Positions 4,610 through 60,869 of a stretch of DNA of 64,000 nucleotides are shown one piece after another; the stretch's first letter is position 1, and the number at the start of each line of letters is the position of its first letter. The notes beneath the pieces are model-generated. The model saw nothing but the letters and a program-made list of their open reading frames with translations. It ran no database searches and was not told where the DNA came from. The stretch is from Rhodospirillales bacterium. GTDB taxonomy: Bacteria; Pseudomonadota; Alphaproteobacteria; Acetobacterales; Acetobacteraceae. A program made the position numbers and the translations under genes. Where the stretch lies: positions 1,450 through 65,449 of the forward strand of contig JAYTUU010000052.1 in the NCBI GenBank assembly GCA_043744375.1, given 5' to 3'.

Positions 4610-4634
4610 ACGAAGCTGAGTTAGGAGAATTTCC

Positions 4635-5555: not shown

Positions 5556-5599
5556 TCCTGGCCGAAGCCTGTCTAGCCCTGATCGGGCGCTCTCTTGTT

Positions 5600-5636
5600 C
5601 AGGGCGGGCGGGACCTGTACGGTGCCGCCCGCCCTG
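5600..5636 (+). terminator. GC-rich hairpin downstream of tsf (possible intrinsic terminator)
   Basis: CAGGGCGGGCGG / CCGCCCGCCCTG stem around a 13-nt loop, followed by CCTTTGTCTG (weak T tract). Confidence 0.5.
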
Positions 5637-5665
5637 CCTTTGTCTGCACCACCCAGTTGCGGGAT

Positions 5666-6388: not shown

Positions 6389-6422
6389 AGGCTCGGCTTC
6401 GTCCGGGAGAGGGAGGGCAGCC

Positions 6423-6989: not shown

Positions 6990-6998
6990 GTGAACCCC

Positions 6999-7775: not shown

Positions 7776-8475
7776 CCCCACCACGCAGCCGCGGCACGTC
7801 ATCGTGCCCCCTGATGGCGGGAAATGGCGCGATCTCGGCGTGCGCGTGGCCTCGGCCGCCGTGCTGCTGCCTGTGGCCCTCGGGAGCCTGTGGGCGGGCG
7901 GTTGGTACTGGACCGCGCTGGTTCTGGTCGGTGCGGCCGGCATGGCGCTGGAATGGCGCGCTTTGTGCAGGCACCGCCCCGCCCCGCTTCAGCCGCTGCT
8001 CGGCGCCGTCTATATTCTGCCGGCAGTCATTGCCCTGCTCTGGCTGCGCGATGACCCGGCGGGCGGTGCCGTGCGCGTGCTGTTCATCCTCTGCGTCGTC
8101 TGGTCCAGCGATATCGGCGCCTATATGACCGGACGGCTGCTCGGTGGCGCAAAACTTGCCCCGACCATTTCGCCCGGGAAGACCTGGTCGGGCGTGGCCG
8201 GCGGACTTGCCGCGGCAATCGCTGTTGGCTTCATCTTTGCGCGGCTCAACGACGGCTCGCCAGGCAGCGCGATGGCCATTGCGGCCCTGCTCGGCGTCGT
8301 CGCACAGGCTGGCGATCTGTTTGAGTCCGGCCTCAAGCGGTATTTCGACGTGAAGGATTCTGGCAATTCGATCCCCGGCCATGGCGGCCTGCTTGATCGT
8401 CTGGACGCGGTTCTGACGGCGGCTCCGGTCGCCGCTGCCCTTCTTCTGTTGCGTGGCGTGGAGCTTTGGCGATGA
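7759..8475 (+). CDS. cdsA: Phosphatidate cytidylyltransferase
   Basis: [29 protein letters not shown] and [17 protein letters not shown] motifs; multi-TM. Start uncertain: GTG 7759 overlaps the uppS end; the track ORF start at 7660 lies inside uppS. Confidence 0.85.
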
Positions 8476-9644
8476 GCGCGAAAACGGTCACCGTGCTCGG
8501 CAGCACCGGCAGTGTGGGCACCCAGACGGTCGAACTTCTCGCCGCCGACCCGCAGCGATTTCGCGTCCGTGCATTGGTTGGCGGCCGGCAGGCGGGGCTG
8601 CTCGCGGCCCAGGCGCGCGCGCTTGGGGCCGAGTGGGCGGTCATCAGCGACGAGGCGGCCTTCGCCGAACTGCAAGCCGCCCTCGCCGGCTCCGGGGTGC
8701 GCTGCGCCGCCGGGCGGGAGGCGGTGATCGCCGCCGCGGCTTTGCCGGCCGATTGGACCATGGCCGCCATCACCGGAGCGGCCGGGCTGGAGCCGACGCT
8801 GGCCGCCATTCGCGGCGGCGGCGCGGTTGCCTTGGCCAACAAGGAGGCGCTGGTCTGCGCCGGCGCGGTCATGCTGCGGGCCGTGCGCGATCACGGCGCC
8901 ACGCTATTGCCGGTTGATTCCGAGCACAACGCCATCTTCCAATCAATGGCCGACGGCAATCGCGGTGCGATCGAGAAGATCATCTTGACCGCCTCGGGCG
9001 GCCCGTTCCGCACGTCGAGCATGGCTGAAATGCGCTCCGCTCGCCCGGAAGCCGCGCTGAAACATCCGGTCTGGTCGATGGGGGCGAAGATCTCGATCGA
9101 CAGCGCGACGATGATGAACAAGGGCCTCGAACTGATCGAGGCGGCGCGGCTGTTCGACCTGTCGGAGAGCGCCATCGGTGTGTTGATCCACCCGCAATCC
9201 GTTATTCACGGCCTCGTCTACTACCATGACGGCAGCGTGTTGGCGCAGCTTGGCTCGCCCGACATGCGAGTGCCGATCGCCCATACCCTCGCCTGGCCGG
9301 CGCGCATGGCCACGCCGGCGCCGCGGCTCGACCTTGCGGCCGTCGCCCGGCTCGAATTCGCCGAACCCGATCCGGTGCAGTTCCCTGCCCTCGGCCTCGC
9401 CCGCGCCGCTCTCGTGGCAGGTGGCGGGGCGCCCGCGATCCTGAGCGCAGCCAACGAAATCGCCGTTGCCGCCTTCCTCGATCGCCGCATCGGCTTCCTC
9501 GACATCGTCGATATCGGCGCCCGCGTGCTCGACGCCCTCGGGGCGCCGCCCGCCGAGTCCCTCGATGCCGTGCTCGGTCTCGACGCTGCGGCCCGGGAGG
9601 CTGCCAGCCGTCTCTGTGCCCTGTGCGCCCGCCCCGCCGCCTGA
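8472..9644 (+). CDS. dxr: 1-deoxy-D-xylulose 5-phosphate reductoisomerase
   Basis: VTVLGSTGSVGTQT, LANKEALV, DSEHNAIFQ motifs; ATG 8472 overlaps the cdsA stop (ATGA). Confidence 0.95.
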   Translation: MSAKTVTVLGSTGSVGTQTVELLAADPQRFRVRALVGGRQAGLLAAQARALGAEWAVISDEAAFAELQAALAGSGVRCAAGREAVIAAAALPADWTMAAITGAAGLEPTLAAIRGGGAVALANKEALVCAGAVMLRAVRDHGATLLPVDSEHNAIFQSMADGNRGAIEKIILTASGGPFRTSSMAEMRSARPEAALKHPVWSMGAKISIDSATMMNKGLELIEAARLFDLSESAIGVLIHPQSVIHGLVYYHDGSVLAQLGSPDMRVPIAHTLAWPARMATPAPRLDLAAVARLEFAEPDPVQFPALGLARAALVAGGGAPAILSAANEIAVAAFLDRRIGFLDIVDIGARVLDALGAPPAESLDAVLGLDAAAREAASRLCALCARPAA

Positions 9645-9755
9645 GAGAAATCGTGCAAACTCTAGAGGTTTCACGAAATTAAGTTTACCCCCACCGCGCG
9701 GTTGCAGTAGGGTCGTTTAAATTACTTCTAAATACGCAAACCGTCTCATGGTTTG

Positions 9756-10889
9756 ATGCGCGAGGAAATCGCCGTGCTGGAGTTTCTGCCCGCCTTCCCA
9801 CGCGCGATCGTGGCCTTTGTTATTGTTCTCGGCATTCTCGTGTTCGTGCACGAATATGGCCACTACATCGCGGCGCGTTGGCGCGGCGTGCATGTGGAGA
9901 CGTTCTCCATCGGCTTCGGCCGCGCGCTGTTCACTTGGCGCGACCGGCGTGGCACCGTCTGGAAGGTCGGCTGGGTGCCGCTCGGCGGCTATGTGAAGCT
10001 GCACGGGCAGGAGCGGCCAGAGGATGTCGCCGCGGAGGTGCGCGCGCGCTGGATCCCCGGGCGCACCTTCCACGAGAAATCCGTGGCCTCGCGGGCCATC
10101 GTCGTGGCGGCGGGGCCGGCGGCCAATTTCGCCCTCGCGGCCGTGCTCTATTTTATCCTGTACGCCAGCGTTGGCCGGCCGATTGCGCTGCCTGTCATTG
10201 GCGAAGTGCTGGCCGATTCGGTGGCGCAGAAGGCCGGGTTGCAGGCCGGCGACCGCATCACCGGCATCGATGACGCCGCCGTTACCCGGTTTGGCGATAT
10301 CCAGCGCATCATCTTCGCCAGCCCCGGAAAACCGCTCGTGCTGCATGTCCTGCGCGCCGACTCGCCGCGCGACATTCCGATCACGCCCGAGGAACAGGTC
10401 GACGCCAAAGGCAATCGCTCTGGCAAGCTTGGCATTCGCGGCGGTGGCACGACCTTCGAACCGGTCTCGTTGCCCGAAGCACTTTGGGCCGGCGTGGACC
10501 AGACCTGGGATATCACCGTGCAGACGCTCGATGGCGTCTGGGCAATGATCAGTCAGCGTAAATCCGGCGAGGATCTCGGCGGGCCGCTGCGCATCGCGCA
10601 GATGTCGGGGCAGGTGGCTACGCTCGGATTCGCCAGCCTCATCTCCTTCATCGCGCTGCTCTCGGTCAATCTCGGGCTGATCAATCTGTTCCCCATCCCC
10701 GTGCTCGATGGCGGCCACCTGATGTTCTTCCTGGCCGAGGCCATTCGCGGCAAGCCATTGCCCGTGCGCGCGCAGGAATACGGCTACCGCGCTGGATTCG
10801 CTCTGCTGATCGGGCTGTTCGTCTTCGCCACCTGGAACGATCTGACGCATATCGGACTGTTCCGCTGGGTCGCGTCCCTGGTCGGATAG
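9756..10889 (+). CDS. rseP: RIP zinc metalloprotease RseP (M50 family)
   Basis: HEYGHY zinc motif, central PDZ-like segment, NLFPIPVLDGGH. GTG 9774 is an alternative start. Confidence 0.9.
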   Translation: MREEIAVLEFLPAFPRAIVAFVIVLGILVFVHEYGHYIAARWRGVHVETFSIGFGRALFTWRDRRGTVWKVGWVPLGGYVKLHGQERPEDVAAEVRARWIPGRTFHEKSVASRAIVVAAGPAANFALAAVLYFILYASVGRPIALPVIGEVLADSVAQKAGLQAGDRITGIDDAAVTRFGDIQRIIFASPGKPLVLHVLRADSPRDIPITPEEQVDAKGNRSGKLGIRGGGTTFEPVSLPEALWAGVDQTWDITVQTLDGVWAMISQRKSGEDLGGPLRIAQMSGQVATLGFASLISFIALLSVNLGLINLFPIPVLDGGHLMFFLAEAIRGKPLPVRAQEYGYRAGFALLIGLFVFATWNDLTHIGLFRWVASLVG

Positions 10890-11047
10890 GGCCTGCCGCC
10901 GACGCGCTCCCGCAAAGTCATGTCAGGGGGGTTGCGCTGCGCGGTTTCGGCGGGTAGCGCCATGCCGATGGTGCGGCTATTCTCCGCGCCCCGCATAGGC
11001 CAGTCGTCTCGAACCTTGGGACGGCGCTGCAACCAGGGGTATCGCCT

Positions 11048-13399
11048 TTGACTCGCACTCGCGCAGCGCTGCTTTCCGCCTTCTGCCTGCTGTTCGCCGC
11101 AGGCCCGGATCTGTCGCACCCGCCGACGGCCAGCGCCCAGGCCGTGCCTGCAAGGCCGGGCGCCGTGGCGGGCCAGGGCGGACTGGTGGGCTCGGTGAAG
11201 ATCGAGGGCAACCAGCGCATCGAGGAGGGCACGATCCGCTCCTACATGCTGCTTCAACCCGGCGACCCGTTCGACTCCGAGCAACTCGATCGCAGCCTCA
11301 AGACGCTGTTCGCCACCGGCTTGTTCAGCGACGTCACCCTGCGGCGCGAGGGTAACGCGCTGGTCGTCAAGGTCGTCGAGAACCCGATCGTCAACCGCAT
11401 CGCCTTCGAGGGCAACAAACAGGTCACCGACGAGGCGCTGCGCCCGGAGCTGCAACTGCGCGCCCGCGCGGTGTTCACCAACGCCACCGCCCAGGCCGAC
11501 CGCCAGCGCATGCTCGACCTCTACGCGCGCAAGGGCCGCTATGCCGCGCGGGTCGAACCCAAGATCATCCAGCTCGACCAGAACCGGGTCGATGTCGTCT
11601 TCGAGATCGACGAGGGCGCGAACACGCTGACCAGCCGCATCGCCTTCGTCGGCAACCGTGCCTACAGCGAGGGCAAGCTCGGCGAGGTCATCTCATCGCG
11701 TGAGGAGGCCTGGTGGCGCTTCCTGTCGACCTCCGACAGCTACGATCCCGACCGGATGAATTTCGACAAGGAGCAGCTGCGCCGCTTCTATCTGTCCAAG
11801 GGTTACGCCGATGTCGAGATCGTAAGCGCCACCGCCGAACTCGCGCCCGACCGGTCCGCCTTCTTCATCACCTTCACGATCAACGAGGGCGAACGCTACA
11901 CAGTCTCCAAGGCCGAGCTGAACGTCACGCTGAAGGGCGTTACTGCCGAGTCGCTGCAATCCCAGATGCCGTTAGACGTGGGCGACTGGTACGACGGCGA
12001 TGCCATCGAGCGCGCCGTGCAGGCGCTCAGCGACGATCTGCAGGGCCGCGGTTTTCCCTTCGTGGAAATTAAGCCGCGCGTGCAGCGCGATCGGGAAAAG
12101 CGCACCATCGAGATTGTGCTCGATGTCGGCGAGGGCCCGCGCGTCTACATCGAACGCATCGACATCACCGGCAACCAGCGCACCTATGACAAGGTGATCC
12201 GCCGCGAGTTCCGGGTCGGCGAGGGCGATCCGTTCAACGTCGCCTTGGTGCGCCTGTCGCGCCAGCGCATCGAGGACCTGGAATACTTCAACCGCATCGA
12301 GATCCTGTCGCAAACCGGTTCGGCACCCGACAAGGTTGTCCTGAACGCGGTCATCGAGGAAAAGGCGACCGGCCAGCTCCTGCTCGGCGGTGGCTATTCG
12401 ACCGATATCGGGGCGCTCGTCTCGTTCGGTCTGCGCGAGAAGAACCTGGTCGGCACCGGCATCGACGGCAGCTTCAACACCGTGCTGGCGCAGAAGCAGA
12501 GTCAGATCAATTTCTCGCTCACCGACCCGTATTTCCTCGACCGCAACCTCGTGGCCGGGTTCGATATCTTCCACATCGTGCAGAACAACACCGACATCGC
12601 CGAGTATCGCGAGAGGCGCACCGGCGTGAGCCTCCGGCTGGGCTACCAGTTCAGCGAGCATCTCCGCCAGTTGATCACCTACTCGGCGGTGGAGCGTAAC
12701 ATCTACGCCGTCGGCGCGAATGCCAGCGTTTATGTCAAGGACGCCAAGGGAGCCTCGCTGCTGTCGCAGATCAGCCAGGCACTGACGCTGGACTATCGCG
12801 ACAGCCGGGTCGATCCGCGCCGCGGCTTCGTGATCCGCCTTGGCACCGATTTCGCCGGCCTCGGCGGCGATGCCCGCTTTGCGCGCGCCAAGATCGACGC
12901 GTCCTACTACATCCCGCTCGAGCGGGTATTCGGAGACCCCGATTGGGTCCTCGCGATCAACGCGGGGGTGGGCCAGATGTTCACCTTCGGCCGCAACGAG
13001 CGCATCATCGACCGGTTCTTCCTCGGCGGCGACAATTTGCGCGGCTTCCAGACCGGTGGCGTCGGTCCGCACTCGATCTCGACCGGGGACAGCATCGGCG
13101 GCCGGTTCATCTGGACGCAATCGACCGAGCTGCGGTTCCCCTTGCCGGTGTCTGCCGATCTCGGCATGACCGGCCGGGCCTTCGTCGATGTCGGCTCGCT
13201 GTCGGAGTTGAATCAGCTCCTGCTCAACGGTGTTCCGCAGGCCTTCACCAACAGCGGCGCGCCGCGGGTCGGCGCTGGCGTCGGCATTTCGTGGAAAACA
13301 CCGTTCGGGCTGATCAATATCGATCTCGGGCAGGCGGTGGTGAAGAAGAAATTCGACCAGACGCAGCTGTTGCGCTTTGGTTTCGGCACAAGGTTCTAA
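11048..13399 (+). CDS. bamA: Outer membrane protein assembly factor BamA
   Basis: Signal peptide, repeated POTRA-like segments (IRVEGNQRI..., IAFEGNKQV..., IAFVGNRAY..., IDITGNQRTYD), C-terminal beta-barrel ending RFGFGTRF. TTG start. Confidence 0.93.
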   Translation: MTRTRAALLSAFCLLFAAGPDLSHPPTASAQAVPARPGAVAGQGGLVGSVKIEGNQRIEEGTIRSYMLLQPGDPFDSEQLDRSLKTLFATGLFSDVTLRREGNALVVKVVENPIVNRIAFEGNKQVTDEALRPELQLRARAVFTNATAQADRQRMLDLYARKGRYAARVEPKIIQLDQNRVDVVFEIDEGANTLTSRIAFVGNRAYSEGKLGEVISSREEAWWRFLSTSDSYDPDRMNFDKEQLRRFYLSKGYADVEIVSATAELAPDRSAFFITFTINEGERYTVSKAELNVTLKGVTAESLQSQMPLDVGDWYDGDAIERAVQALSDDLQGRGFPFVEIKPRVQRDREKRTIEIVLDVGEGPRVYIERIDITGNQRTYDKVIRREFRVGEGDPFNVALVRLSRQRIEDLEYFNRIEILSQTGSAPDKVVLNAVIEEKATGQLLLGGGYSTDIGALVSFGLREKNLVGTGIDGSFNTVLAQKQSQINFSLTDPYFLDRNLVAGFDIFHIVQNNTDIAEYRERRTGVSLRLGYQFSEHLRQLITYSAVERNIYAVGANASVYVKDAKGASLLSQISQALTLDYRDSRVDPRRGFVIRLGTDFAGLGGDARFARAKIDASYYIPLERVFGDPDWVLAINAGVGQMFTFGRNERIIDRFFLGGDNLRGFQTGGVGPHSISTGDSIGGRFIWTQSTELRFPLPVSADLGMTGRAFVDVGSLSELNQLLLNGVPQAFTNSGAPRVGAGVGISWKTPFGLINIDLGQAVVKKKFDQTQLLRFGFGTRF

Positions 13400-13404
13400 G
13401 CGAA

Positions 13405-14250
13405 ATGAAGCGTCGCGTGTTTGCCATCGCCGTTGCTGCCCTCGCCGGGCTGACGGTTTCATTTGCCTGGCTTGTCCCGCCGGCAGCGGCGCAGGGCCAG
13501 GATTTTTTCGTGCCGAACCAACGCCCCGCGCCGCAGGCCGGCCAGCGCCCGCCGGCTGCCGCCCCAGGCCCCGCGCGCGCCGCGCCGCGTCCGGCACCGA
13601 CCAACCAGCCAGCACCGCAGGAGGAAGCCCAGGCACCGATCCAGGCGCCGATGCCGCCGGTTCCGGACTTGCCGGCGCTCCCCCGTGGTGCCGCCGCGCC
13701 GGCGGCCATCATCGGCTTGATCGGCGTGCCCGAGGTGATGCGCGCCTCCGCCGCCGCTCAGTTGGTTGACCGCGTCATCGGCGAACGCCGCGAGAAATTG
13801 AACGAGGATGCCCAGAAGGAGCAGCAGGCCTGGCGCGACCTCCAGCAGGCGCTCGCCAACCAGCGCACGACCCTTTCGCCGGAGCAGATACGCACCAAGG
13901 AGCGTGAACTGCAGGACCGCATCACCAGCGCGCAGCAGCGCTTCCAGAACCGCGGCCGGATCATTCAGGAAGCGGCGCAGTACGGCCTCAACCAGATCCA
14001 GGCCTCGCTGATCGCGGTGATCCGTCAGGTATCGGAAAGCCGTGGCATGAACCTGATCCTGCACCGCCAGCAGGTCGCGTTGAACGTCAACGAGTTCGAT
14101 ATCACCGAGCAAGTTGCCGAACAGCTCAACAAGCTGCTGCCGACGGTGATCATTCCGCCTGATGGCGTGTCGCCCAATCCCCCGGCGGCGGCCGGTACCC
14201 CTGCCGCTAGTACCCCCGCCGCAACGCCGCCCGCACCGCCGAAGCGCTGA
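13405..14250 (+). CDS. OmpH/Skp-family periplasmic chaperone with a Pro/Ala-rich insert
   Basis: [30 protein letters not shown] signal peptide, coiled-coil region ([25 protein letters not shown]...), position between bamA and lpxD. The track ORF (from 12943) overlaps bamA. Confidence 0.8.
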
Positions 14251-14254
14251 TCCG

Positions 14255-15304
14255 ATGGCGGGCGATCCGCGCTTCTTTGCCCGCCCCGCGCCGATCTCGA
14301 TCGCGGCCGTATGCGCGGCGGCCGGCGGAAGCGCCGATGGGGATGGCTTTCTGCTCACCGGCATAGCGCCGCTGCAGACGGCGACGGCGACCGAGCTGAG
14401 CTTTCTCGACAATCGCCGCTATCTGCCTGCGCTCAAGGAGTGCCGCGCCGGTGCTGTGATCGTGCATCCCGACATGGCCGCGCATGTGCCGGAGGGCACG
14501 CGCGCCATTGTCACCCCTCAGCCCTATCTTGGCTGGGCGCGTGCTGCCGCCCTTTTCTTTCCGGCCCCGCCGACCACCCCAGGCGTACATAGCACCGCGG
14601 TCGTGGACGAAACCGCACGGATCGACCCATCGGCCGAGATTGGCCCGTTCGCGGTAGTTGCCGCCGGCGCTGAGGTCGGCGCGCGCTGCCGTGTCGGACC
14701 GGGTGCCGTGATCGGTGCCGGCGTCGTGCTCGGTGCGGATTGCCGGATCGGTGCCCATGCCAGCATCAGCCACGCCTTGCTTGGCGCACGGGTCTACATC
14801 TATCCCGGCGCGCGGATCGGCCAGGAGGGCTTCGGTTTTGCCTCCGGCCCCACCGGCCTTGTCACCGTTCCCCAGCTTGGCCGCGTGCTGATCGGCGACG
14901 ATGTCGAGATCGGCGCCAATTCCTGTGTCGACCGTGGCAGCGCCCAGGATACCGTGATCGGCGCCGGCTCGCGGCTCGATAACCTCGTGCAGATCGGCCA
15001 CAACGTGCAGCTTGGCCGCTGCTGCATCGTCGTCGCCCATGCCGGCATTTCCGGTTCCGCGGTGCTGGAGGATTTCGTCGTCATCGCCGGGCAGGCGGGT
15101 GTCGCGGGCCATCTGCGCATCGGCAAGGGCGCCAAGATCGGTGCGCAAGCGGGTGTGATATCGGACGTTCCAGCCGGCCAGGATTGGGTCGGCAGCCCGG
15201 CCCAGCCGGCGCGGGAGATGTTTCGGCAGGTGGCGATACTCAAGCGCCTCGCCGTCCGCACCCCGGCGAAAGATCAGAACGCCACGCGAAAGGAGACGAC
15301 ATGA
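14255..15304 (+). CDS. lpxD: UDP-3-O-acylglucosamine N-acyltransferase
   Basis: [19 protein letters not shown]..., long left-handed beta-helix hexapeptide repeats, conserved position. Confidence 0.93.
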
Positions 15305-15810
15305 GCGATCAGCCCCCCGCGGCTTCCGAGCCGCGGCGTATCGACCGCATCGACATCAACCGCATCATGCTCGGCCTGCCGCACCGGTTCCCCTTTCTGC
15401 TGATCGATCGGGTCGTCGATTTCGTGCATGACCAGTCGGCCACCGGCATCAAGAACGTTTCGATCAACGAGCCGTTCTTCCAGGGCCACTTCCCGGGCAA
15501 CTTCGTCATGCCTGGTGTGCTGATCGTCGAGGCGATGTGCCAGACGGCGGGCGTGGTGGTGTGCGAAACCCTCGGCCCGGAGGACGGCTACGGCATCAGC
15601 GTCTATTTCATGTCCATCGAAGGGGCGAAATTCCGCCGCCCCGTGGTGCCCGGCGACCAGGTGCACCTGCACGTCACGAAAGACCGCCGGCGGGGCGGGG
15701 TCTGGCGGTTCAATGCGGAAGCGAAGGTGGATGGCGTGAAAGTGGCAGAGGCGACGTTCACCGCGATGGTGATCCCGAAAGACAAGACCGCGGCGGCCCC
15801 CACATCGTGA
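15301..15810 (+). CDS. fabZ: 3-hydroxyacyl-ACP dehydratase FabZ
   Basis: [13 protein letters not shown] and [21 protein letters not shown] motifs; ATG 15301 overlaps the lpxD stop (ATGA). Confidence 0.96.
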
Positions 15811-16619
15811 CGGGCATTCATCCAACCACGCTCATCGCGCCCGGCGCGCGGATTGCCGACGGTGTCGAGATCGGGCCGTGGTGCACGGTCGGCGCGGACG
15901 TGGAGCTTGCCGCCGGCGTGCGGCTGATCAGCCACGTCGTCGTCGAGGGCCACACGAGAATTGCCGCCGGCGCGGTGCTCTACCCGTTCAGCACCGTCGG
16001 CATGGCGCCGCAGGATCTCAAGTATAAGAATGAACCGACGCTCGTGGAGATCGGCGAACGTACGCTGATCCGCGAGCACGTCACCATCCATCGCGGCACC
16101 CCGAACGGCGCCGGCATTACCCGCGTTGGCGCCGACTGCATGCTGATGAACGTCGTCCATGTCGCGCATGACTGTACGATTGGCAACGGCGTCATCATCG
16201 CCAACAACGTGGTGATGGGCGGCCATGTCCAGATCGGCGACCATGCGGTGATCGGCGGCAGTTCGGCGATCCACCAGTTTGTCCGCATCGGCCGCGCGGC
16301 GATGATCGGTGGCGTTTCGGGCGTGGAGGCCGATGTCGTGCCGTTCGGCGTGGTGCTCGGCAACCGCGCGCGCCTGGCCGGGCTCAACGTCATCGGCATG
16401 CGCCGCCGCGGCTTCGACCGGGCGCAGATCCACGGAGTCCGCGCCGCGTTCCGGGAGATGTTCTGGGGCAGCGGCGTGTTCGCCGAACGGGTCGCCGTCG
16501 TACGCGCCCGCATGGCCGGCGATCCGCTGATCGACGAGATGCTCGCCTTCATGGCCGTGCCGAGTAAGCGCGGCCTGGTGCGCGCGGGGTCACCGAGCCA
16601 CGACGACAGCGACAGCTAG
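15807..16619 (+). CDS. lpxA: Acyl-ACP--UDP-N-acetylglucosamine O-acyltransferase
   Basis: IHPTTLIAPGARIADGVEIGPWCTVG hexapeptide repeats; GTG 15807 overlaps the fabZ stop (GTGA). Confidence 0.93.
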   Translation: MTGIHPTTLIAPGARIADGVEIGPWCTVGADVELAAGVRLISHVVVEGHTRIAAGAVLYPFSTVGMAPQDLKYKNEPTLVEIGERTLIREHVTIHRGTPNGAGITRVGADCMLMNVVHVAHDCTIGNGVIIANNVVMGGHVQIGDHAVIGGSSAIHQFVRIGRAAMIGGVSGVEADVVPFGVVLGNRARLAGLNVIGMRRRGFDRAQIHGVRAAFREMFWGSGVFAERVAVVRARMAGDPLIDEMLAFMAVPSKRGLVRAGSPSHDDSDS

Positions 16620-16622
16620 ACG

Positions 16623-17471
16623 ATGACCGATCGCCCGGCGCTCGGTATTCTCGCGGGGTCCGGCCCACTGCCCGGGCGCGTCGCCTCGGCGGCCCGGGCG
16701 GCGGGGCGGGCTGTATTCATCGTCGGCCTCGAAGGCTTCGCGGAGAAGGCCGTGCTCGCTCCCTACGCGCATGATTTCGCCCGCATGGGGGCGGCCGGGC
16801 GCATCCTCGACCTGTTGCGCGCGAATAACTGCAAGGATCTCGTGCTGATTGGCCCGGTCCGCCGGCCGTCGATTTTCGACGCGCGGCCGGACGGGATGGG
16901 CGCGAAACTCCTGGCACGCGTCGGCCGCGCGGCCTTCGGTGGCGACGATTCGCTGCTGGCCGCCGTGATCAAGGTGCTGGGCGAGGAGGGTTTTTCTGTC
17001 ATTGGCGCCCATGAAATCCTCACCGAGGCGCAGGCCCCGCGCGGCCTGCTGACCGCCGCCGCCCCGGACGCGCAGGCGATGAGCGATATCGCGCGCGGCG
17101 TCGCGGTCTGCCGCGCCCTCGGGGCCGTCGATGTCGGGCAGGGCTGCGTCATCCAGTCCGGCCTCGTGCTCGCCGTCGAGGCGATCGAGGGCACTGACGC
17201 CATGCTCGCACGCGCCAGCCTGCACCGCCGCGGCGGCGCCGGCGGCGTGCTGGTGAAAATGTCCAAACCCGGCCAGGAACGCCGTGCCGACCTGCCGACC
17301 ATCGGGGCCGTGACGGTCGCGAACGCCGTTGCCGCCGGCCTGCGCGGCATCGCCTTCGAAGCCGGCGGCGCTTTGTTCGCCGAGCGCGACGCCGCCATCG
17401 CCGCCGCCGACGCGGCCGGCCTATTCCTCATCGGCATTGATGCTCAATCGCAGCAGGAGACGGCCGCATGA
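16623..17471 (+). CDS. lpxI: UDP-2,3-diacylglucosamine diphosphatase LpxI (DUF1009 family)
   Basis: GILAGSGPLPGRVA, GQGCVIQSGLVLAVEAIEGTDAML, KPGQERRADLPTIG; the usual alphaproteobacterial position after lpxA. Confidence 0.8.
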   Translation: MTDRPALGILAGSGPLPGRVASAARAAGRAVFIVGLEGFAEKAVLAPYAHDFARMGAAGRILDLLRANNCKDLVLIGPVRRPSIFDARPDGMGAKLLARVGRAAFGGDDSLLAAVIKVLGEEGFSVIGAHEILTEAQAPRGLLTAAAPDAQAMSDIARGVAVCRALGAVDVGQGCVIQSGLVLAVEAIEGTDAMLARASLHRRGGAGGVLVKMSKPGQERRADLPTIGAVTVANAVAAGLRGIAFEAGGALFAERDAAIAAADAAGLFLIGIDAQSQQETAA

Positions 17472-18322
17472 AAATCGGCGCCGCGATGTTCTTCACCGAC
17501 TATTCGATGACCCCGATGGCCCTCGGCAAGGCGCTCGAAGAGCGAGGGTTCGACTCGCTGTGGGCGCCCGAGCACTCCCACATCCCGGCATCCCGCGCCT
17601 CGGCCTTCCCCTCCGGCGGCGAATTGCCGAAGAAATACTACGATGCCATGGACCCCTTCGTGACGTTGACGGCCGCCGCCTGCGCCACCACCACCCTGCT
17701 GGTCGGCACCGGCATCTGCCTGGTGCCGCAGCGCGACCCGATCCAGACTGCCAAGCTCGTCGCCTCCCTCGATCAGGTCAGCAATGGTCGCTTCCTGTTC
17801 GGCGTCGGCAATGGCTGGAACGCCGACGAGATGGCCAATCACGGCACCGATTTCACCACGCGCCACAAGCTCGCCCGCGAGCGCATCGAGGCGATGCAGG
17901 CGATCTGGACGCAGTCCAGGGCCGAATATCACGGCGAGATGGTCAATTTCGATCCGATCATGGCGTGGCCCAAACCGGTTCAGAAGCCACATCCGCCGAT
18001 CATCGTTGGCGGCGCCTTCCCCTACGGCCCGCGCCGCGCCATCCGCTACGGCAATGGCTGGATGCCGCACCGGACACGCCCGAACTACACCGATGTCGCG
18101 GAGTTCGTTCCGCAATTCCGCGACATGGTCGTCCAGGCCGGGCGCGATCCGGCGGACGTGCCGGTGACCATCTGGGGCGCGCGCGAAGATTTTTCCCTGC
18201 TCGAACGCGACCGCGCGCTGGGTGTGGTGCGGCTCGTCGTCAGCCTCGACTCGGCGCGGGACGATGCGATCCTGCCGGAACTCGACCGCTGGGCCGCATT
18301 GATCCGCCGCCTCGGGGATTGA
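17468..18322 (+). CDS. Luciferase-like monooxygenase (LLM) family, F420/flavin-dependent oxidoreductase type
   Basis: MKIGAAMFFTDYSMTPMALGKALEERGFDSLWAPEHSHIP..., GRFLFGVGNGWNADEM, PHPPIIVGG; ATG overlaps the lpxI stop (ATGA). Confidence 0.8.
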   Translation: MKIGAAMFFTDYSMTPMALGKALEERGFDSLWAPEHSHIPASRASAFPSGGELPKKYYDAMDPFVTLTAAACATTTLLVGTGICLVPQRDPIQTAKLVASLDQVSNGRFLFGVGNGWNADEMANHGTDFTTRHKLARERIEAMQAIWTQSRAEYHGEMVNFDPIMAWPKPVQKPHPPIIVGGAFPYGPRRAIRYGNGWMPHRTRPNYTDVAEFVPQFRDMVVQAGRDPADVPVTIWGAREDFSLLERDRALGVVRLVVSLDSARDDAILPELDRWAALIRRLGD

Positions 18323-18424
18323 TCACGCAGCGCGGACGTTGCGCGGCGCGCCGGCAACCCCGCGGGTGAACTGGCGGGCAATGTTGGCGGCTCCGAGGAT
18401 GCCGTAGCGGAGCGGGGAGGGCAT
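18323..18424 (-). pseudogene. 5' remnant of a Gfo/Idh/MocA oxidoreductase gene (truncated duplicate of 56542..57570)
   Basis: My translation MPSPLRYGILGAANIARQFTRGVAGAPRNVRAA* compares with MTSPLRYGILGAANIARQFTRGVAGSPLATV... for the intact gene. It ends 1 nt after the LLM gene stop. Confidence 0.75.
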
Positions 18425-19392
18425 GGTCGGCTCCTGGATTTTCGGGAGAATGCGGCAGTCCGGAGGGATCGACCAGGGGATATTTATTACGAATTAGTAA
18501 CAAAATGCTCGTGCATCTGCGGCTGGTGCGGCATTCCCGGGAGGCGGCGCCGGGGGTGGCCAGGGCGGTGGGCGCAGGAGAGCGGGCGGCGTGGCCGGCC
18601 GGGGCGCGTTGGGCGGGTTGGTGAATGGATGCCGGGCATGCGGCGCGAGGTCGGCGGGGGTGTGCGCCGGCGGCTGGTCCGGCGACTGGTCCGGCTGTGC
18701 CATGCGTGCGGTGCGCGGGGCGCTCGGCGGGTTGGGTTGGCGCGCGGGCCGGTTGGCGGGCGGCGTGCGGGGTTGGCTGTCCTGGCACGGGCGGTTGGGC
18801 AAGGCGGGCGGCAGGCCGGCGGTCTGGAAGAAAGCCAGCAGGTGGGCGAGGCCATCGCGCAGATGGCCGATTCGCCGCCAAACTGGCCCGGCCCAGGCGC
18901 CGAACAGACGCTGGCGCAGGGCGAGCAACGGCGTGGCGGGGGCCAGCATTGCATCCAGGCACAGGATGATCGCCTCCAGCACACGACACAGAGCCGCCGC
19001 GTCGGAGGCGCCAGGCCGGGGTTGGGGGGGAGCAATGTTCATATTGTGTTCCTAGCAAACCGCTACGCCGGACGCAAGGAAATTTTTCCTCTAAGCGCTA
19101 TTTTTTCCGTGGTGCGATGCGGGAGAAGCGGACGCCGAGACTGATACTGGCCGAACCGCCGGCGATGGGGGCGGTGAAGGATCGCGACGCCGGGTGCGGG
19201 CACGCTGCCGCCAGTGAGCGCGGCGCCCCCGCGCGCGCCGGGCTGGGGGAGCGGCATGGGCAGGCAGTTGCGGGGGGCGACGAGTGCGACGGCGATGCAG
19301 CAGGCGCTTTGCACCGCCTGGGCATGCGCGGGCGCCTTCGAGCGGGATGGGCAGAGAGTGGACAGCCGTATCGACGAGACAGCTTCGAATGC
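18340..19392. repeat. R1: ~1.05-kb direct repeat, paralogous to R2 at 57486..58567
   Basis: By-eye alignment shows long identical runs in the same orientation, e.g. GGCGGCGTGCGGGGTTGGCTGTCCTGGCACGGGCGGTTGGGCAAGGCGGGCGGC and CATATTGTGTTCCTAGCAAACCG. Left boundary is approximate (+/-15 nt). Confidence 0.9.
18494..19042 (-). CDS. Hypothetical protein: ~80-aa helical N-terminal domain plus a long proline-rich tail (paralogue at 58194)
   Basis: MNIAPPQPRPGASDAAALCRVLEAIILCLDAMLAPATPLLALRQRLFGAWAGPVWRRIGHLRDGLAHLLAFFQ...; the frame is kept in both R copies despite indels. I recognise no family. Confidence 0.45.
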   Translation of the reverse strand: MNIAPPQPRPGASDAAALCRVLEAIILCLDAMLAPATPLLALRQRLFGAWAGPVWRRIGHLRDGLAHLLAFFQTAGLPPALPNRPCQDSQPRTPPANRPARQPNPPSAPRTARMAQPDQSPDQPPAHTPADLAPHARHPFTNPPNAPRPATPPALLRPPPWPPPAPPPGNAAPAADARAFCY

Positions 19393-56541: not shown

Positions 56542-57570
56542 TCAGGCGGCGATATCGACCCATCGGCCGCTGCGCGCGCTGGCGGCGATGGCTTCGAGGG
56601 CGAGCACGATATCGATCGACTCCGCCTCGCTGGCGCCGTTCCAGCCGGCGCCGGTGCGCACGAGGGTGGCGAACGAGTCCGCCTCGGCGCGAAAACCGTC
56701 GCCGCCGGGCAGGTCCTCCGTCTCGAACGGCAGCGGGCCGGCGATGCCGCGCTTGACGCGGAGCGGCAGGGTGCCGGTGAGCGCATGGTTGCTGTAGCCG
56801 GTTTCCACCACGCCCTTGTCGCCGATGATGACGGCATGGCGGTGCCCGGCGGTGGACAGGCTGCACGTGAGTTGGCCGATCGCGCCGGAGGGGAATTCGA
56901 TGGTCGCCGCGATGGTCTGATCGACGCCGGTGGTGGTGGTGCGCTGCGTCGCGATCAGGCGTGTCGGGCGTTCGCCGGTGGCGATGCGCAGCAGGCTCAT
57001 CGCATAGGTGCCGGCATCGAGCAGCGCGCCGCCGCCGCGGGCGGGCACCAGGCGGATGTTCGCCGGGTCGCCGGTCGGCACGCCGTCAGCCGTCGCGATG
57101 GCGAATCCGAACGCGGCGGTGGCGATCTGGACGCGGCCGAGCGTGCCGTCGGCGAGCAGTTCGCGCAGCCGCAGCGTCTGCGGTTGGGACATGTAGGGGT
57201 AGGCTTCGCGCAGATACACGCCATGAGCGCGGGCGGCGGCATACATCGCATGCGCCTCGGTGCCGGTCATGCAGAGCGGCTTCTCGCACAGCACATGCTT
57301 GCCGGCCGCCATCGCCTTGATCGCCCACTCCGCGTGCATGTCGTTCGGCAGGGGGATGTAGATCGCCTCGATCTCGGGGTCGGCGAGCAGCGCCTCGTAG
57401 GTGGGGTGGGCGCGGGGAATGCCGAGCTCCTTGGCGAACGCGGCCGCCTTCTCCGCGCCACGGCTGCCGACGGCGGTGACGGTGGCGAGCGGCGAGCCGG
57501 CAACCCCGCGGGTGAACTGGCGGGCAATGTTGGCGGCACCGAGGATGCCGTAGCGGAGCGGGGAGGTCAT
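56542..57570 (-). CDS. Gfo/Idh/MocA-family NAD(P)-dependent oxidoreductase
   Basis: MTSPLRYGILGAANIARQF Rossmann N-terminus, IYIPLPNDMHAEWAIKAMAAGKHVLCEKP. ATG 57570 preceded by AGGAGA. Confidence 0.88.
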   Translation of the reverse strand: MTSPLRYGILGAANIARQFTRGVAGSPLATVTAVGSRGAEKAAAFAKELGIPRAHPTYEALLADPEIEAIYIPLPNDMHAEWAIKAMAAGKHVLCEKPLCMTGTEAHAMYAAARAHGVYLREAYPYMSQPQTLRLRELLADGTLGRVQIATAAFGFAIATADGVPTGDPANIRLVPARGGGALLDAGTYAMSLLRIATGERPTRLIATQRTTTTGVDQTIAATIEFPSGAIGQLTCSLSTAGHRHAVIIGDKGVVETGYSNHALTGTLPLRVKRGIAGPLPFETEDLPGGDGFRAEADSFATLVRTGAGWNGASEAESIDIVLALEAIAASARSGRWVDIAA

Positions 57571-58567
57571 GGTCGTCTCCTGGATTTCCGGGAGAATGCG
57601 GCAGTCCGGAGGGATCGGCCAGGGGGGGTGCCTAATTATTCCGAAATCGCAACAAATAGGGCATGCGTTTGCTGCCGGTGCGGTAGGCCCGGGAGGCGGC
57701 GCGGGGGGTGGCCAGGGTGGCGGGCGCATCAGAGCGGGGGGCGCGGGCGGAGGGGGAGCGTTGGGTGGGGTGGTGCATGCAGGCCGGGCAGGCGGCGCGC
57801 TGATGGTGTGGGTTTGCGGCGGCGGCTGGTCCGGCGGCGCGGGGCGTTGGGTGCGCGGGGCGCCCGGCGGGGTGGGGTGGCGCGCGGGCCGGTTGGCGGG
57901 CGGCGTGCGGGGTTGGCTGTCCTGGCACGGGCGGTTGGGCAAGGCGGGCGGCGGGCCGGCGGCCTGGAAGAACGCCAGCAGGTGGGCGAGGCCATCGCGC
58001 AGATGGCCGATTGGCGCCCAAACTGGCCGCCAAACTGGCTCGGCCCAGGCGCCGAACAGACGCTGGCGCAGGGTGCGCAGCGGCGTGGCGGGGGCCAGCA
58101 TTGCATCCAGGCACCGGATGATCGCCTCCAGCACGCGACACAAAGCCACCGCGTCAGGGGCGCCAGGCCGGGGTTGGGGGGGAGCAATGTTCATATTGTG
58201 TTCCTAGCAAACCGTTAGGCCGGATGCAAGGAAATTTTTCCTCTAAAGGCTCTTTTTCAGTGGCGCGATGCGGGAGAGGCGGTGCCGGGCGAGGCTCAGG
58301 CGTGCGGACGCCGACGCTGATAGTGGCCGAACCGCCGGCGATGGGGGCGGTGAAGGATCGGCACGCCGAGTGCGGGCACGCTGCCGCCAGTGAGCGCGGC
58401 GACCCTGACGCGCGGGGCTAGGGGAGCGGCATGGGCCGGCGGTTGCGGGGGGCGACGAGGGCGACGGCGATGCAGCAGGCGCTTTGCACCGCCTGGGCAT
58501 GCGCGGACACCTTCGAGCGGGATGGGCAGAGAGTGGACAGCCGTATCGATGAGACAGCTCCGAATGC
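57486..58567. repeat. R2: ~1.08-kb direct repeat, paralogous to R1 at 18340..19392
   Basis: Same orientation as R1. Relative to R1 it carries a 12-nt CCAAACTGGC-type duplication and a ~25-nt insertion (GGTGCCGGGCGAGGCTCAGGCGTGC) in the leader part. Confidence 0.9.
57571..58194 (-). CDS. Hypothetical proline-rich protein, paralogue of 18494..19042; no in-frame stop before the oxidoreductase ATG
   Basis: MNIAPPQPRPGAPDAVALCRVLEAIIRCLDAMLAPATPLRTLRQRLFGAWAEPVWRPVWAPIGHLRDGLAHLLAFFQ.... The track ORF 56542..58194 reads straight into the Gfo/Idh/MocA gene. True 3' end unknown. Confidence 0.4.
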
Positions 58568-58625
58568 ACCTCAGAGACCCACCCTATGGAAGCTCCGGTG
58601 GTGGACGTGGATAGAATTCTCCATT

Positions 58626-59216
58626 CTACCTTTTGCTTGAGACGCCGTGGCGTACATGCATATCAAATTCACGAAGTTCGATGAGGGCACCTCCAACTCC
58701 CTTTCCTGCCGCTTCTTCTAGCAATGGCTTGGCGATGGTCAGGTTCGCGGGAAATTCAGTCCGAATGCCGTACTTATGCATAAACCCTTTAAAAAACTTG
58801 GCCGTCGCATGGTCGTGAGTCTTTATCAAGAAATCCAACATGAAGTCGCTGTATTCTGGCTGGTATATTACAGGTCCCAGACCCTTTACTGCGCCACCGA
58901 TATAAGAAAATATGCTGGCATGCATTATATAATCCGGAGATGTTCGTTCTAGGTCGAGTTTATTTACAATAAATAGTCGCGGACCTACCGAGCCGAAGTC
59001 ATCGTTCAATTGCCGATAAAGTCCGCCGATATCGTCACGAGTCATGCGAGATTCAATTTCCACATGGTAGCGCTCGTGCCTCATGAAGATGCGCGATAGG
59101 ACGCCCTGCACCCTTCTTAAAAGATGGTCGTGATTGGGTCCATCTTTGCCCTCAGTCGCAAGAAGTTTTGCCTTTAGATATACAAACGTTTCTTCCAAAT
59201 CCTTATCGGCGATCAT
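58626..59216 (-). CDS. Hypothetical protein in an AT-rich segment (about 196 aa from ATG 59216)
   Basis: MIADKDLEETFVYLKAKLLATEGKDGPNHDHLLRRVQGVLSRIFMRHERYHVEIE...GGAVKGLGPVIYQPEYSDFMLDFLIKTHDH...; foreign codon usage. The upstream part of the 288-aa track ORF is antisense to the IS3 fragment. Start uncertain. Confidence 0.55.
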   Translation of the reverse strand: MIADKDLEETFVYLKAKLLATEGKDGPNHDHLLRRVQGVLSRIFMRHERYHVEIESRMTRDDIGGLYRQLNDDFGSVGPRLFIVNKLDLERTSPDYIMHASIFSYIGGAVKGLGPVIYQPEYSDFMLDFLIKTHDHATAKFFKGFMHKYGIRTEFPANLTIAKPLLEEAAGKGVGGALIELREFDMHVRHGVSSKR

Positions 59217-59361
59217 TTCGGGACTCAATACGTGCCTATTCAACAACCTCACTCGCGCTACTCCCAGCGTTACAACAAAGGTGGCTCTGGCAATCTGAAC
59301 AGTTGGATAAGTGGCATGGGCGAGCCTGATCGAGCAAGCTTGCTTATGAACGGGAGCGACG

Positions 59362-59580
59362 ATGAGCAGACGACCTCGCCGGAACCAGACGCCGGGCTTC
59401 AAGGCGAAATTGGCCTTGGCGGCCATCAAAGGTGACAAGACGCTGGCCGATCTGGCCAGCAGTTTGACGTGCACCCCAACCAGATCACGCAATGGAAGGC
59501 GCAGTTGCAGGAAGGCGCTGCCGACACCGCCGGTGGACCTGAAATCGCTGCATGGGAAGATCGGAGAGCTGGCGCTGCGC
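59362..59580 (+). mobile_element. IS3-family transposase orfA, degraded fragment (frameshift plus internal deletion, no orfB)
   Basis: MSRRPRRNQTPGFKAKLALAAIKGDKTLADLAS, then a shift of frame restores QFDVHPNQITQWKAQLQEGAAD, then PVDLKSLHGKIGELAL. Confidence 0.75.
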
Positions 59581-59644
59581 TCGTACGGTGAGTGGGCTTC
59601 CGCTGCGACCTGGAATTTGCCGGATGCAAAAATCCTGCAAAGGA

Positions 59645-59783
59645 GAACAGGGCAGATTTCCTGACCTAATGTGATGGGCTACCTCAGGGTAGCTGCCCCC
59701 CGGGACTCCGCAGCCAAACCGATGGAAGTTTTTTGGTTCTTTTTTCAAAAAAGAACTGCTGTCTCAGGGCAATCGCGTGAAGC
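59645..59783. repeat. A2: double-palindrome repeat (copies A1 21780..21892, A3 60654..60757)
   Basis: GAACAGGGCAGATTTCCTGACCTAATG...ACCTCAGGGTAGCTGCCCCCCGGGACTCCGCAGCCAAACCGATGGAAGTTTTTTGGTTCTTTTTTCAAAAAAGAACTGCTGTCTCAGGGCAATCGCGTGAAGC. Confidence 0.85.
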
Positions 59784-59925
59784 ATTGCATTGCAGGTCTC
59801 GACACTCATCCATTCCCTAATGGGCGTCGTTGCAAGCCTTGCGAAGCACTCCCGCATCACCGTCCTTCATTTTCGATGGCCCGGCGAGATGGAAAGGGCT
59901 GGTCAAAATGCTCCTCCAATGCTAG

Positions 59926-59937
59926 GTTACATGTAAC
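59926..59937. promoter_or_regulatory. Perfect 12-bp palindrome upstream of the antitoxin gene (candidate TA operator)
   Basis: GTTACATGTAAC, 14-20 nt upstream of the mazE-type start codons. Confidence 0.4.
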
Positions 59938-59951
59938 TATTCCTTGGAGAT

Positions 59952-60197
59952 ATGGTTATGGCTACGCCATCAAACCCCAAGCCGTCGCGCGTGAAGGTGC
60001 GTGAGCATCGCGCGCGGTTGCGCGGCCAGGGGCTGCGTCCGATCCAGATATGGGTACCGGATGTCCGCGCGCCGGCCTTCCGGTCAGAGGCGCATCGCCA
60101 ATCGCTGGCCGTGGCCACCAGTCCTCATGCTGCTGAAGATCAGGCGTTCATCGACGCCGTGTCCGCTATCGATTTCGAAGAGGGCGGCGCTGAATGA
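59952..60197 (+). CDS. MazE-family antitoxin (DUF3018-like)
   Basis: PSRVKVREHRARLRGQGLRPIQIWVPDVRAPAFRSEAHRQSLAVA. Overlaps the toxin start (ATGA). ATG 59958 is an alternative start (GGAGA upstream). Confidence 0.8.
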   Translation: MVMATPSNPKPSRVKVREHRARLRGQGLRPIQIWVPDVRAPAFRSEAHRQSLAVATSPHAAEDQAFIDAVSAIDFEEGGAE

Positions 60198-60547
60198 GGC
60201 GGGGTGACATCTGGACCGTATCGGGTGGCGAGGGCTATGCAGGCAAACCGCGCCCCGCCGTCATTGTGCAGGACGATAGCTTTGACGGTACCGACTCCAT
60301 CACCATCTGCGCCTTCACCACGGATGAGACCGACGCGCCGCTGTTTCGGCTTGTCGTGGAACCGAACGAGCGGAATGGTTTGCGCGCCGGATGCCGCATG
60401 ATGGTGGACAAGATCACCACCGTCCCCAAGTCGAAGACCGGCGCGCGCGTCGGCAGGCTCGATGACGAGGATATCCTGCGCCTCAATCAGGCCGTGCTGG
60501 TGTTCCTTGGACTGGCGGTTTCGCCAAGGGTGAGCCGGGAGGGGTGA
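60194..60547 (+). CDS. PemK/MazF-family type II toxin (endoribonuclease)
   Basis: MRRGDIWTVSGGEGYAGKPRPAVIVQDDSF...ITICAFTTDETDAPLFRLVVEP...MMVDKITTVPKSK. Confidence 0.88.
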   Translation: MRRGDIWTVSGGEGYAGKPRPAVIVQDDSFDGTDSITICAFTTDETDAPLFRLVVEPNERNGLRAGCRMMVDKITTVPKSKTGARVGRLDDEDILRLNQAVLVFLGLAVSPRVSREG

Positions 60548-60653
60548 CAAAGAAGGCCGCCGAACGTACCCCGGCGTAGGTTGGGGCCGTTCTGTTTATC
60601 AGCGGTTCGCGCGATCCGGCCGGTATGTCCCGACCCCGCGCCGAGTGCGGTCG

Positions 60654-60757
60654 AACCTCAGGGCAGCTGCCTCCGGGACTCAGCGGCCAAACCGATAGAA
60701 GTTTTTTGGTTCTTTTTTTCAAAAAAGAACCGCTGTCTCAGGGCAATCGGGTGAAGC
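60654..60757. repeat. A3: double-palindrome repeat lacking the first ~30 nt of A1/A2
   Basis: ACCTCAGGGCAGCTGCCTCCGGGACTCAGCGGCCAAACCGATAGAAGTTTTTTGGTTCTTTTTTTCAAAAAAGAACCGCTGTCTCAGGGCAATCGGGTGAAGC. Confidence 0.85.
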
Positions 60758-60840
60758 GCGGCAATCCCGCATCGCCGTGAGACCGTTTGGGTGGCTCTGG
60801 ATTGCTTCGCAAGGGCTCGCAATGACGGTGGAGAACCGCC

Positions 60841-60869
60841 TTGCGCGGGGGGCGGGGGGTGGTTATAAG
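60841..60869 (+). promoter_or_regulatory. Candidate sigma70-type promoter for rpmI-rplT
   Basis: TTGCGC (60841-60846), 17-nt spacer, TATAAG (60864-60869), ~90 nt upstream of the rpmI ATG. Pattern match only. Confidence 0.35.

Follow-up and report, generated by a model that had tools for sequence, protein, structure and literature searches.

A rare Sel1-like cargo gene in an accessory island of a Rhodospirillales bacterium

Within a 64,000-nucleotide stretch of the genome of a Rhodospirillales bacterium (contig JAYTUU010000052.1 of assembly GCA_043744375.1; the whole stretch is called the window below), an AT-rich gene on the minus strand lies alone between a repeat and the remains of an insertion sequence (IS). 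This orphan gene is real, intact, foreign and horizontally acquired, and as the evidence stands it counts as a modestly interesting, uncharacterised cargo gene of the Sel1-like kind. On balance we read it as solo cargo of mobile elements, its product being a cytoplasmic alpha-helical repeat protein and a non-catalytic Sel1-like binder of other proteins, in which an N-terminal helical domain with a conserved R58-H59...E67 patch would be followed by about 2.5 Sel1-like repeats (SLRs). An earlier reading of the same DNA, the original prediction, had seen in it a candidate toxin or defence gene with a possible HEPN RNase motif; the tests described here remove the lead of a HEPN toxin.

Gene, composition and family

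The open reading frame (ORF) ends at a TAG codon at 58626–58628, and reading from the in-frame ATG at 59216 gives the 196-residue product of the original prediction. The frame remains open 5′ of this ATG, however, and with the GTG at 59252 as start the product has 208 residues. A GGGAG Shine-Dalgarno-like site, read from the sequence at 59265–59261 on the minus strand, is separated from this GTG by a spacer of 8 nt, with no comparable site at the ATG, and in the homologues matched by phmmer 14–32 residues precede the position equivalent to ATG 59216. The 12 residues added by the GTG start (MRLLNRHVLSPE) can be aligned with the first residues of the closest homologues, for instance MLSFFNRNIRNPES, and the N-terminus as read from GTG 59252 (MRLLNRHVLSPEM...) matches in alignment the N-termini of its nearest relatives, among them MLSFFNRNIRNPESL and MFQLFKSHLKDPATL. 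Because of the GGGAG spacing and the match to the closest homologues we prefer GTG 59252 over ATG 59216, and the gene probably occupies 58626–59252 of the minus strand. A fragment of an IS3-family element starts at about 59279, 26 bp beyond the GTG, and the gene is therefore not truncated. We considered N-terminal truncation by the IS3 insertion and rejected it, as the GTG with its Shine-Dalgarno site stands 26 bp inside the unique segment and the N-terminus matches those of the short-form homologues described below. What IS debris has replaced is the former upstream sequence of the gene.

The foreign composition noted in the original prediction is plain, and its count of 21 G+C among the 60 nucleotides at 58921–58980 is exact. 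In 300-bp steps, G+C drops from 0.66–0.78 to 0.46–0.47 over 58650–59250, and the 711-bp segment 58568–59278, which holds the orphan gene alone, has 47.7% G+C compared with 71.5% in the repeat on one side (R2; 57489–58567) and 60.2% in the IS3 fragment on the other. The gene itself has a G+C of 0.47 and a G+C at third codon positions of 0.50, against 0.81–0.90 in dapF, the neighbouring oxidoreductase gene, rplT and pheS, and its codon usage is unadapted to the host. When the island was compared by blastn with the whole 160-contig assembly, the AT-rich segment proved to be single copy and the DNA around it to be repeated, host-type sequence. Since the DNA on both sides of the segment is of the type usual in this genome, a binning artefact is unlikely.

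The original prediction recognised no family for the product, which is true of the curated libraries. Pfam, NCBIfam and PADLOC give no match for the 196-, 208- or 288-residue products, the window protein has no match in PADLOC-DB 2.0 at E≤1, and at E≤0.01 none of 31 family members matches PADLOC and none has a useful match in PHROGs, save one member with a weak match. A word-indexed search with the single protein found no homologue, and with alignments it found three and four members. The protein is no singleton, however: an exhaustive phmmer search of 1.84 billion representatives returned 50 clusters at E≤1e-3, 24 of them at E≤1e-10, whose sequences are mostly 200–250 residues long and are named “hypothetical protein” or left unnamed in their sources.

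All column counts given here refer to an alignment of 31 family sequences (A1). Eight positions are invariant (G119, L142, G156, K160, Y161, G162, G185 and E192) and ten more are at least 90% conserved (E20, K27, R58, H59, G126, A174, L178, A181, A189 and L193). The window copy retains all eighteen residues, and keeping every residue that the family conserves argues for a gene that is functional or recently acquired.

The family comes in two forms. In 18 of the 31 members (~58%) a hydrophobic N-terminal segment starts at residues 1–4; position 2 is usually acidic, and basic residues follow the segment. The positive-inside rule is an established basis for reading the orientation of membrane segments, and by this rule the acidic residue and the following basic ones would make the segment an N-out/C-in anchor and not a Sec signal peptide, with the domain cytoplasmic and tethered to the membrane. 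Throughout the family an N-terminus that is hydrophobic is an N-out anchor that lacks a basic n-region, and the remaining N-termini are not hydrophobic. Many of the long forms also carry a C-terminal tail resembling L-x-x-I-x-S-[VI]-H...W (A1 columns ~240–260). The window protein and its closest relatives (P0004–P0009 and P0053) are short forms with no anchor, and short forms have no tail. The presence of both anchor and tail or of neither suggests two subfamilies that may differ in localisation or partners.

Predicted structure, binding and the HEPN question

AlphaFold2, when supplied with A1, produced a model of high confidence (predicted local distance difference test, pLDDT, 91.2; predicted template-modelling score 0.88); the model from the single sequence was useless (pLDDT 34). 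Helices span residues 16–32, 39–57, 60–68 and 72–76 and are followed by a beta-hairpin at 79–95, after which come helices at 106–118, 132–146, 149–161, 171–183, 187–194 and 196–201, with a short hairpin at 120–128. Secondary structure, pLDDT and conservation delimit an N-terminal domain of helices plus hairpin (residues 1–100; 58953–59252, minus strand), which contains the conserved E20, K27, R58, H59 and E67. Residues 1–100 have no structural match in PDB or BFVD, and the model as a whole has no full-length Foldseek match and none at E<1e-3 in either database.

The C-terminal half does have partial matches. The best of these in Foldseek cover about 90–135 columns at a root-mean-square deviation (rmsd) of 3–5 Å, and all are Sel1-like or tetratricopeptide repeat (TPR) proteins. 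They include SEL1L of the HRD1 complex (probability 1.00, rmsd 4.5 Å over 103 columns), COA7, DELE1, IpgC, the SLR immunity protein PA5087 (5jkp) and many giant-virus Sel1 proteins, with E-values of at least 0.035 and TM-scores of 0.3–0.4 for all SLR/TPR matches. A sequence-profile search of the PDB gave noise only, plus very weak matches to TPR proteins and AlgK. By sequence, phmmer matches a canonical 616-residue multi-Sel1 protein (P0041) in four stretches at E=1.7e-6 against 1.8 billion representatives, and hhalign places A1 columns 164–223 in register with one repeat of this protein (E=0.001, probability 21%). The Pfam Sel1 model is found below threshold in 5 of the 31 members (best E=0.0037), the window protein having no match at E≤1. 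The C-terminal block that gives these sequence matches reads P-A-x-F-L-K-G-x3-K-Y-G-x6-P-x-L-x-E-A-x2-L-L-x2-A-x3-G-V-G-x-A-x2-E-L, and the G/A/L/Y pattern of residues 149–193 is one that we take to follow the Sel1 consensus. Because the phmmer match, the in-register hhalign alignment, the weak Pfam matches and the partial Foldseek matches agree, we assign residues ~106–201 (58650–58937, minus strand) as about 2.5 divergent Sel1-like repeats, a relationship that is real but sub-threshold.

Set beside SLR proteins at large (PF08238, TPR clan; SEL1L/Hrd3, H. pylori Hcp and COA7), the C-terminal 95 residues are modelled as paired antiparallel helices and have the G/A/L/Y spacing of Sel1 repeats, and by analogy protein binding would be the expected action. 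The orphan differs from them in having about 2.5 repeats, all below the Pfam gathering score, in the short beta-hairpins inserted in its repeats, and in its unmatched 100-residue N-terminal RH...E domain. Many bacterial SLR proteins are exported, whereas the orphan has no signal peptide.

The 208-residue product would accordingly be pictured as a cytoplasmic, soluble short form that acts by binding another protein, with no catalysis of its own, as other SLR/TPR proteins do; it might serve as an adaptor, a neutraliser or a modulator. In most family members the binding would take place at the cytoplasmic face of the membrane, the window form being soluble. This mode of action is suggested by the general activity of SLR/TPR modules, for example in PA5088, which binds the PldB toxin through its SLRs (PMC13736854). 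Several points weigh against such a reading. No neighbour gene is conserved over about ten homologous contexts and no partner protein was identified. The near-invariant R58, H59 and E67 could belong to a catalytic site or a metal site and not to a patch for binding. The Sel1 assignment is built of sub-threshold or partial matches (Pfam E of 0.0037, Foldseek E of at least 0.035, hhalign probability of 21%). Finally, a scan found no sigma-70-type promoter, other types such as alphaproteobacterial or IS-borne outward promoters lying outside the scan.

The HEPN idea of the original prediction rested on the string RHERYH (residues 58–63 in 208-residue numbering; 59064–59081, minus strand), which does have the R-x4-H spacing of HEPN RNases, and it warned that six residues of this kind can occur by chance. 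The warning was apt: Rx4H occurs four times in the window protein and at least once in 59% of composition-preserving shuffles, so the motif alone is uninformative. Were the protein a HEPN-type RNase toxin, RHERYH would be the catalytic Rx4H of a four-helix core, in a solo toxin or an abortive-infection effector. Conservation agrees with this as far as the first two residues, R58 being found in 29 of 31 members and H59 in 30 (E67 in 25), but these are conserved as an adjacent pair. The second histidine of the motif, H63, is found in the window sequence only (1/31), with I, V, L or F in 24 members and other residues in six. Neither the conserved-column lists of A1 nor the printed alignment contains a conserved R 5–7 residues before H59 or a conserved H 5–7 residues after R58, and what characterises the family is thus not Rx4-6H but adjacent R and H with [YF]-x-[LV]-[DE]-x-E after them.

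Profiles and structure agree with the alignment. HEPN models of Pfam match none of the 31 members at E≤1, and the four-helix HEPN core, for which the original prediction proposed to test a predicted structure, found no counterpart: Foldseek gave 230 PDB matches for the pLDDT-91 model, and among the 50 of these that were listed there is no HEPN entry, the partial matches being to Sel1/TPR proteins. Toxin–antitoxin (TA) modules do lie near the window gene and near homologous loci, and weak HEPN-like genes stand beside two homologues (L025 435–875, Pfam HEPN E=0.021; L002 9439–10035, HEPN_Apea E=0.036, with the string IRNRFVH), but these are neighbours and not relatives of the family. Nor is there an antitoxin-like partner, either next to the window gene or as a conserved neighbour in the ~10 homologous contexts. 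The likeness to HEPN RNases (HEPN-MNT toxins and the Abi/Csm6/Cas13 type) thus comes to a local R-x4-H string, a helical N-terminal region and a TA-island context, in a protein whose motif is not conserved, which matches HEPN neither by profile nor by fold and which is accompanied by neither MNT nor antitoxin. Lack of conservation of the motif and a fold of another kind are both among the findings that the original prediction named as refuting it; the family is not HEPN, and a HEPN toxin at this locus is very improbable.

The island and the contexts of homologues

The orphan gene is part of a 3.3-kb accessory island (57571–60838) that extends from the start of a Gfo/Idh/MocA oxidoreductase gene (assigned by Pfam) to the rpmI-rplT-pheST genes. 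In order, it holds R2, the orphan gene, the IS3 fragment, a REP-like repeat, a mazE-like gene, a PemK gene and a second REP-like repeat. In 4 of 7 same-genus genomes the oxidoreductase and rpmI flanks lie only ~90–120 bp apart, and in the other three the site holds different inserts of ~1.2, 1.6 and 2.0 kb; as the flanks nearly adjoin in some congeners and enclose different inserts in others, the site is an insertion hot spot. One of these congeners (G007) has R2-like sequence at the same site and then different cargo, a lower-GC ORF of 253 residues that looks GIY-YIG-like by eye.

That the orphan is a single gene between R2 and an IS3 fragment, as the original prediction had it, was borne out, since it is the sole gene of 58568–59278; the description of it as IS-flanked was right for one side. 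On the 5′ side lies an IS3-family left end with a fragment of orfA (59279–59577, plus strand), frameshifted, internally deleted and truncated as judged by blastn and by alignment to a Hartmannibacter IS3. The 3′ side, however, adjoins R2, which is not an IS and has one further copy in the genome, 86% identical, at 18343–19392 of the window. The IS3 fragment matches IS3 transposase genes on plasmids and is 89% identical to another copy in the assembly (contig C49). The addiction cassette reported 0.7 kb away is indeed present as an independent neighbour (59952–60547, plus strand), made up of a mazE-like gene (59952–60197; Pfam MazE-like, E=3e-25) and a PemK/MazF gene (60194–60547; PemK_toxin, E=8e-19).

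Three side observations concern the parts of the island around the orphan gene. The repeats that bracket mazEF (59645–59861 and 60655–60842) are REP-like and not specific to the island; they are composites of two dispersed elements (~45 and 80–100 bp) with dozens of copies in the assembly, many at contig ends, and are present in all seven congeners. A proline-rich ORF of R2 (56542–58194, minus strand) reads through without a stop codon into the frame of the oxidoreductase gene, and the joint ORF has 550 residues; Pfam domains begin only at residue 213, congeners lacking R2 match from the oxidoreductase start only, and the ORF probably stands for two distinct products or else for a GC-rich frame that is not coding. 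The IS3 copy most like that of the window (L011 3388–3845, Hartmannibacter plasmid HDIAp1) adjoins a gene annotated as a Sel1 repeat family protein, which is probably a coincidence.

A gene beside such debris may be a silent passenger, intact but neither expressed nor useful here, a recent hitch-hiker awaiting decay. The decayed IS3 fragment, the lack of a sigma-70-like promoter and the unadapted codon usage would all fit, as would the fact that the gene is unique to this genome among eight congeners, at a hot spot that holds different cargo elsewhere. Against this stand the intact frame, the retention of all family-conserved residues and the good Shine-Dalgarno site, and the promoter scan did not model alphaproteobacterial or IS-borne outward promoters. 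We consider a silent passenger unlikely, though it deserves to be weighed.

Homologues are sparse. Searches of 60 relatives, the seven congeners included, and of 400 genomes sampled across the phylum did not find the orphan gene. A 400-genome sample of the class around a Burkholderiales metagenome-assembled genome (MAG) that carries a member gave, beyond the carrier, two weak matches only, both confined to the Sel1-like region. There was no member among 50,697 phage records searched by tblastn, and a locus search with an alignment (A3) gave one locus in genomes and none in IMG/VR or in JGI metagenomes. The sole member found in 72,556 plasmid records is WP_096876870.1, from plasmid pLM6 of Methylomonas koyamae (NZ_CP023670.1, 91623–92333). 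It is a true family member, with 30% identity to the window protein over 195 residues (pairwise E=3e-28), but differs in being a long form, which has a transmembrane helix at its N-terminus and a tail at its C-terminus, in its 29.8% G+C, and in its place on a plasmid, where it follows a 1.4-kb ORF-poor gap adjoining MobH relaxase and TraD genes.

About ten homologous contexts were examined, and the mobile or addiction-type setting recurs among them. For instance, in L012 the family gene is preceded by mazEF, a ParE pair and then two small ORFs, and is followed in turn by DUF5615/DUF433, an IS1-like gene, a type I restriction–modification (R-M) system, BrnT and Gp49/HTH_37; this island (7481–19030) is very dense in TA genes and lies on a 62-kb metagenome contig directly after a CO-dehydrogenase-like operon. 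In L004 brnTA, mqsRA and a 174-residue ORF precede the family gene, which is followed by a Sel1-like protein (sub-threshold Pfam Sel1, E=1.8e-5). A tandem paralogue at this locus was rejected, the downstream 232-residue gene being a canonical Sel1 protein and not a family member. L015 has a BrxR-like WYL regulator, the family gene, Adhesin_E, a 474-residue Sel1 protein (E=6e-46), a resolvase, H-NS and AAA_25; in L023 the family gene stands between a tyrosine-recombinase fragment and a weak HNH gene; and in both L008 and L009 a lambda Ea8.5-like gene comes after it. The Burkholderiales MAG (L010; LNEG01000004.1) has the family gene within an array of at least 10 paralogous genes. This array (4014–13540) consists of co-oriented tandem genes for products of ~243–320 residues with basic tails, most ending in RRRxGL or RRRxRL; two of the products are 32% identical to each other, and Pfam is empty save for a faint ANK-like match in one.

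Seven loci were measured for composition, and in every one the family gene is richer in AT than the locus around it; the difference is at least 9 points in L002, L004, L012 and L015, ~4 in L008 and 1.5 in L010 (example G+C values for gene and locus are 0.41 and 0.61, 0.30 and 0.49, and 0.35 and 0.44). An integron cassette was rejected, as a crude screen by regular expression and folding found no attC-like flanking sites in the window island, L002, L004, L012 or L015, with a lone palindrome in L010 that does not adjoin the family gene. Transfer together with mazEF was also rejected: the MazF beside homologue P0006 is only 34% identical to that of the window, and the shared mazEF neighbourhood therefore reflects a type of island and not a co-transferred block. 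The mobile, addiction-type setting claimed for the gene is thus supported both here and in the TA-rich, integrase-adjacent and plasmid loci of its homologues, and the family, which is rare, unnamed and carried by mobile elements, passes from host to host by way of plasmids, integrative elements and islands rich in TA genes.

A conserved operon partner was sought and rejected, since an all-against-all BLAST of 23 neighbour proteins revealed no family common to the loci. In this the orphan departs from a type II TA module: it is solo in the window, and the neighbours of its homologues are mutually non-homologous. Four loci do have a tightly coupled upstream ORF of 144–192 residues, read from the same strand and separated from the family gene by 16, 21, 31 and 116 bp; those of L004, L012 and L024 have 174, 192 and 144 residues. 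An upstream ORF in L024 that looked Sel1-like by eye was unconfirmed by Pfam.

Such ORFs raise the question of a neutraliser, akin to immunity proteins or antitoxins, in which the SLR protein would inhibit a toxic partner encoded upstream, a partner here lost on insertion of the IS3 element 26 bp upstream. Besides the four coupled ORFs, the IS3 fragment occupies the exact place of the would-be partner gene, the surroundings are rich in TA genes, and PA5087 (5jkp) is among the partial fold matches. SLR proteins are established as toxin-neutralising immunity proteins: PA5086, PA5087 and PA5088 of Pseudomonas aeruginosa (Tli5 family) are small SLR proteins of a type VI secretion system (T6SS) that neutralise a toxin, PldB, by binding (PMC13736854). 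These, however, are periplasmic, with signal peptides, and lie beside the effector gene pldB in a T6SS-linked locus, whereas the orphan has neither effector nor signal peptide, no T6SS gene was seen in the window or in the ~10 homologous contexts, and the sequence similarity is limited to the generic repeat. The same holds for the family, which has no signal peptides, and no secretion-system or polymorphic-toxin gene was seen in any context. The four upstream ORFs are not homologous to each other and none has a recognised toxin domain, and other homologues have no close upstream gene, as with the 1.4-kb gap on pLM6. A neutraliser is thus a minor possibility, to be held in mind but not favoured.

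The distribution also bears on a single-gene conflict factor, active in phage defence, superinfection exclusion or anti-defence, whose SLRs would sense or block a foreign protein and whose RH...E domain or anchor would be the effector. The family is found only on or beside mobile elements and islands rich in TA and R-M genes, is rare and patchy with foreign composition, and has a membrane anchor in 18 of 31 members; a lambda Ea8.5-like gene stands beside a homologue, and the pLM6 copy is near relaxase genes after the 1.4-kb gap. On the other side, PADLOC and PHROGs have no match among the 31 members at E≤0.01 save the one weak PHROG, the 50,697 phage records and IMG/VR have none either, no effector domain is recognisable and the window copy has no anchor. 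We hold a conflict factor of this sort to be quite unlikely. A broader version, to which we give similarly little credence, would make the family a hitherto unrecognised single-gene conflict module of mobile elements, in which the Sel1-like part is a sensor or decoy and is fused with an N-terminal domain of a new kind that has RH...E as active site or trigger, tethered in most members to the inner-membrane face, and that might serve in phage exclusion, in anti-defence or in neutralising variable toxins encoded upstream.

Significance

Non-catalytic binding by a Sel1-like cargo protein is the reading that we favour, and for the gene itself the gain is that its start codon is improved, that it now has a family and assigned domains, and that its structure is modelled with confidence, with the lead of a HEPN toxin in a defence island removed on explicit tests. 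The SLR class of repeat is common and well known; what is new is a family absent from the curated libraries searched, with an N-terminal domain unmatched in PDB or BFVD. With ~50 clusters among 1.8 billion representatives, the family is a small piece of the dark matter of mobile elements, and the discovery of a binding partner or a phenotype would give the biology of plasmids and islands one more accessory function, a new one.

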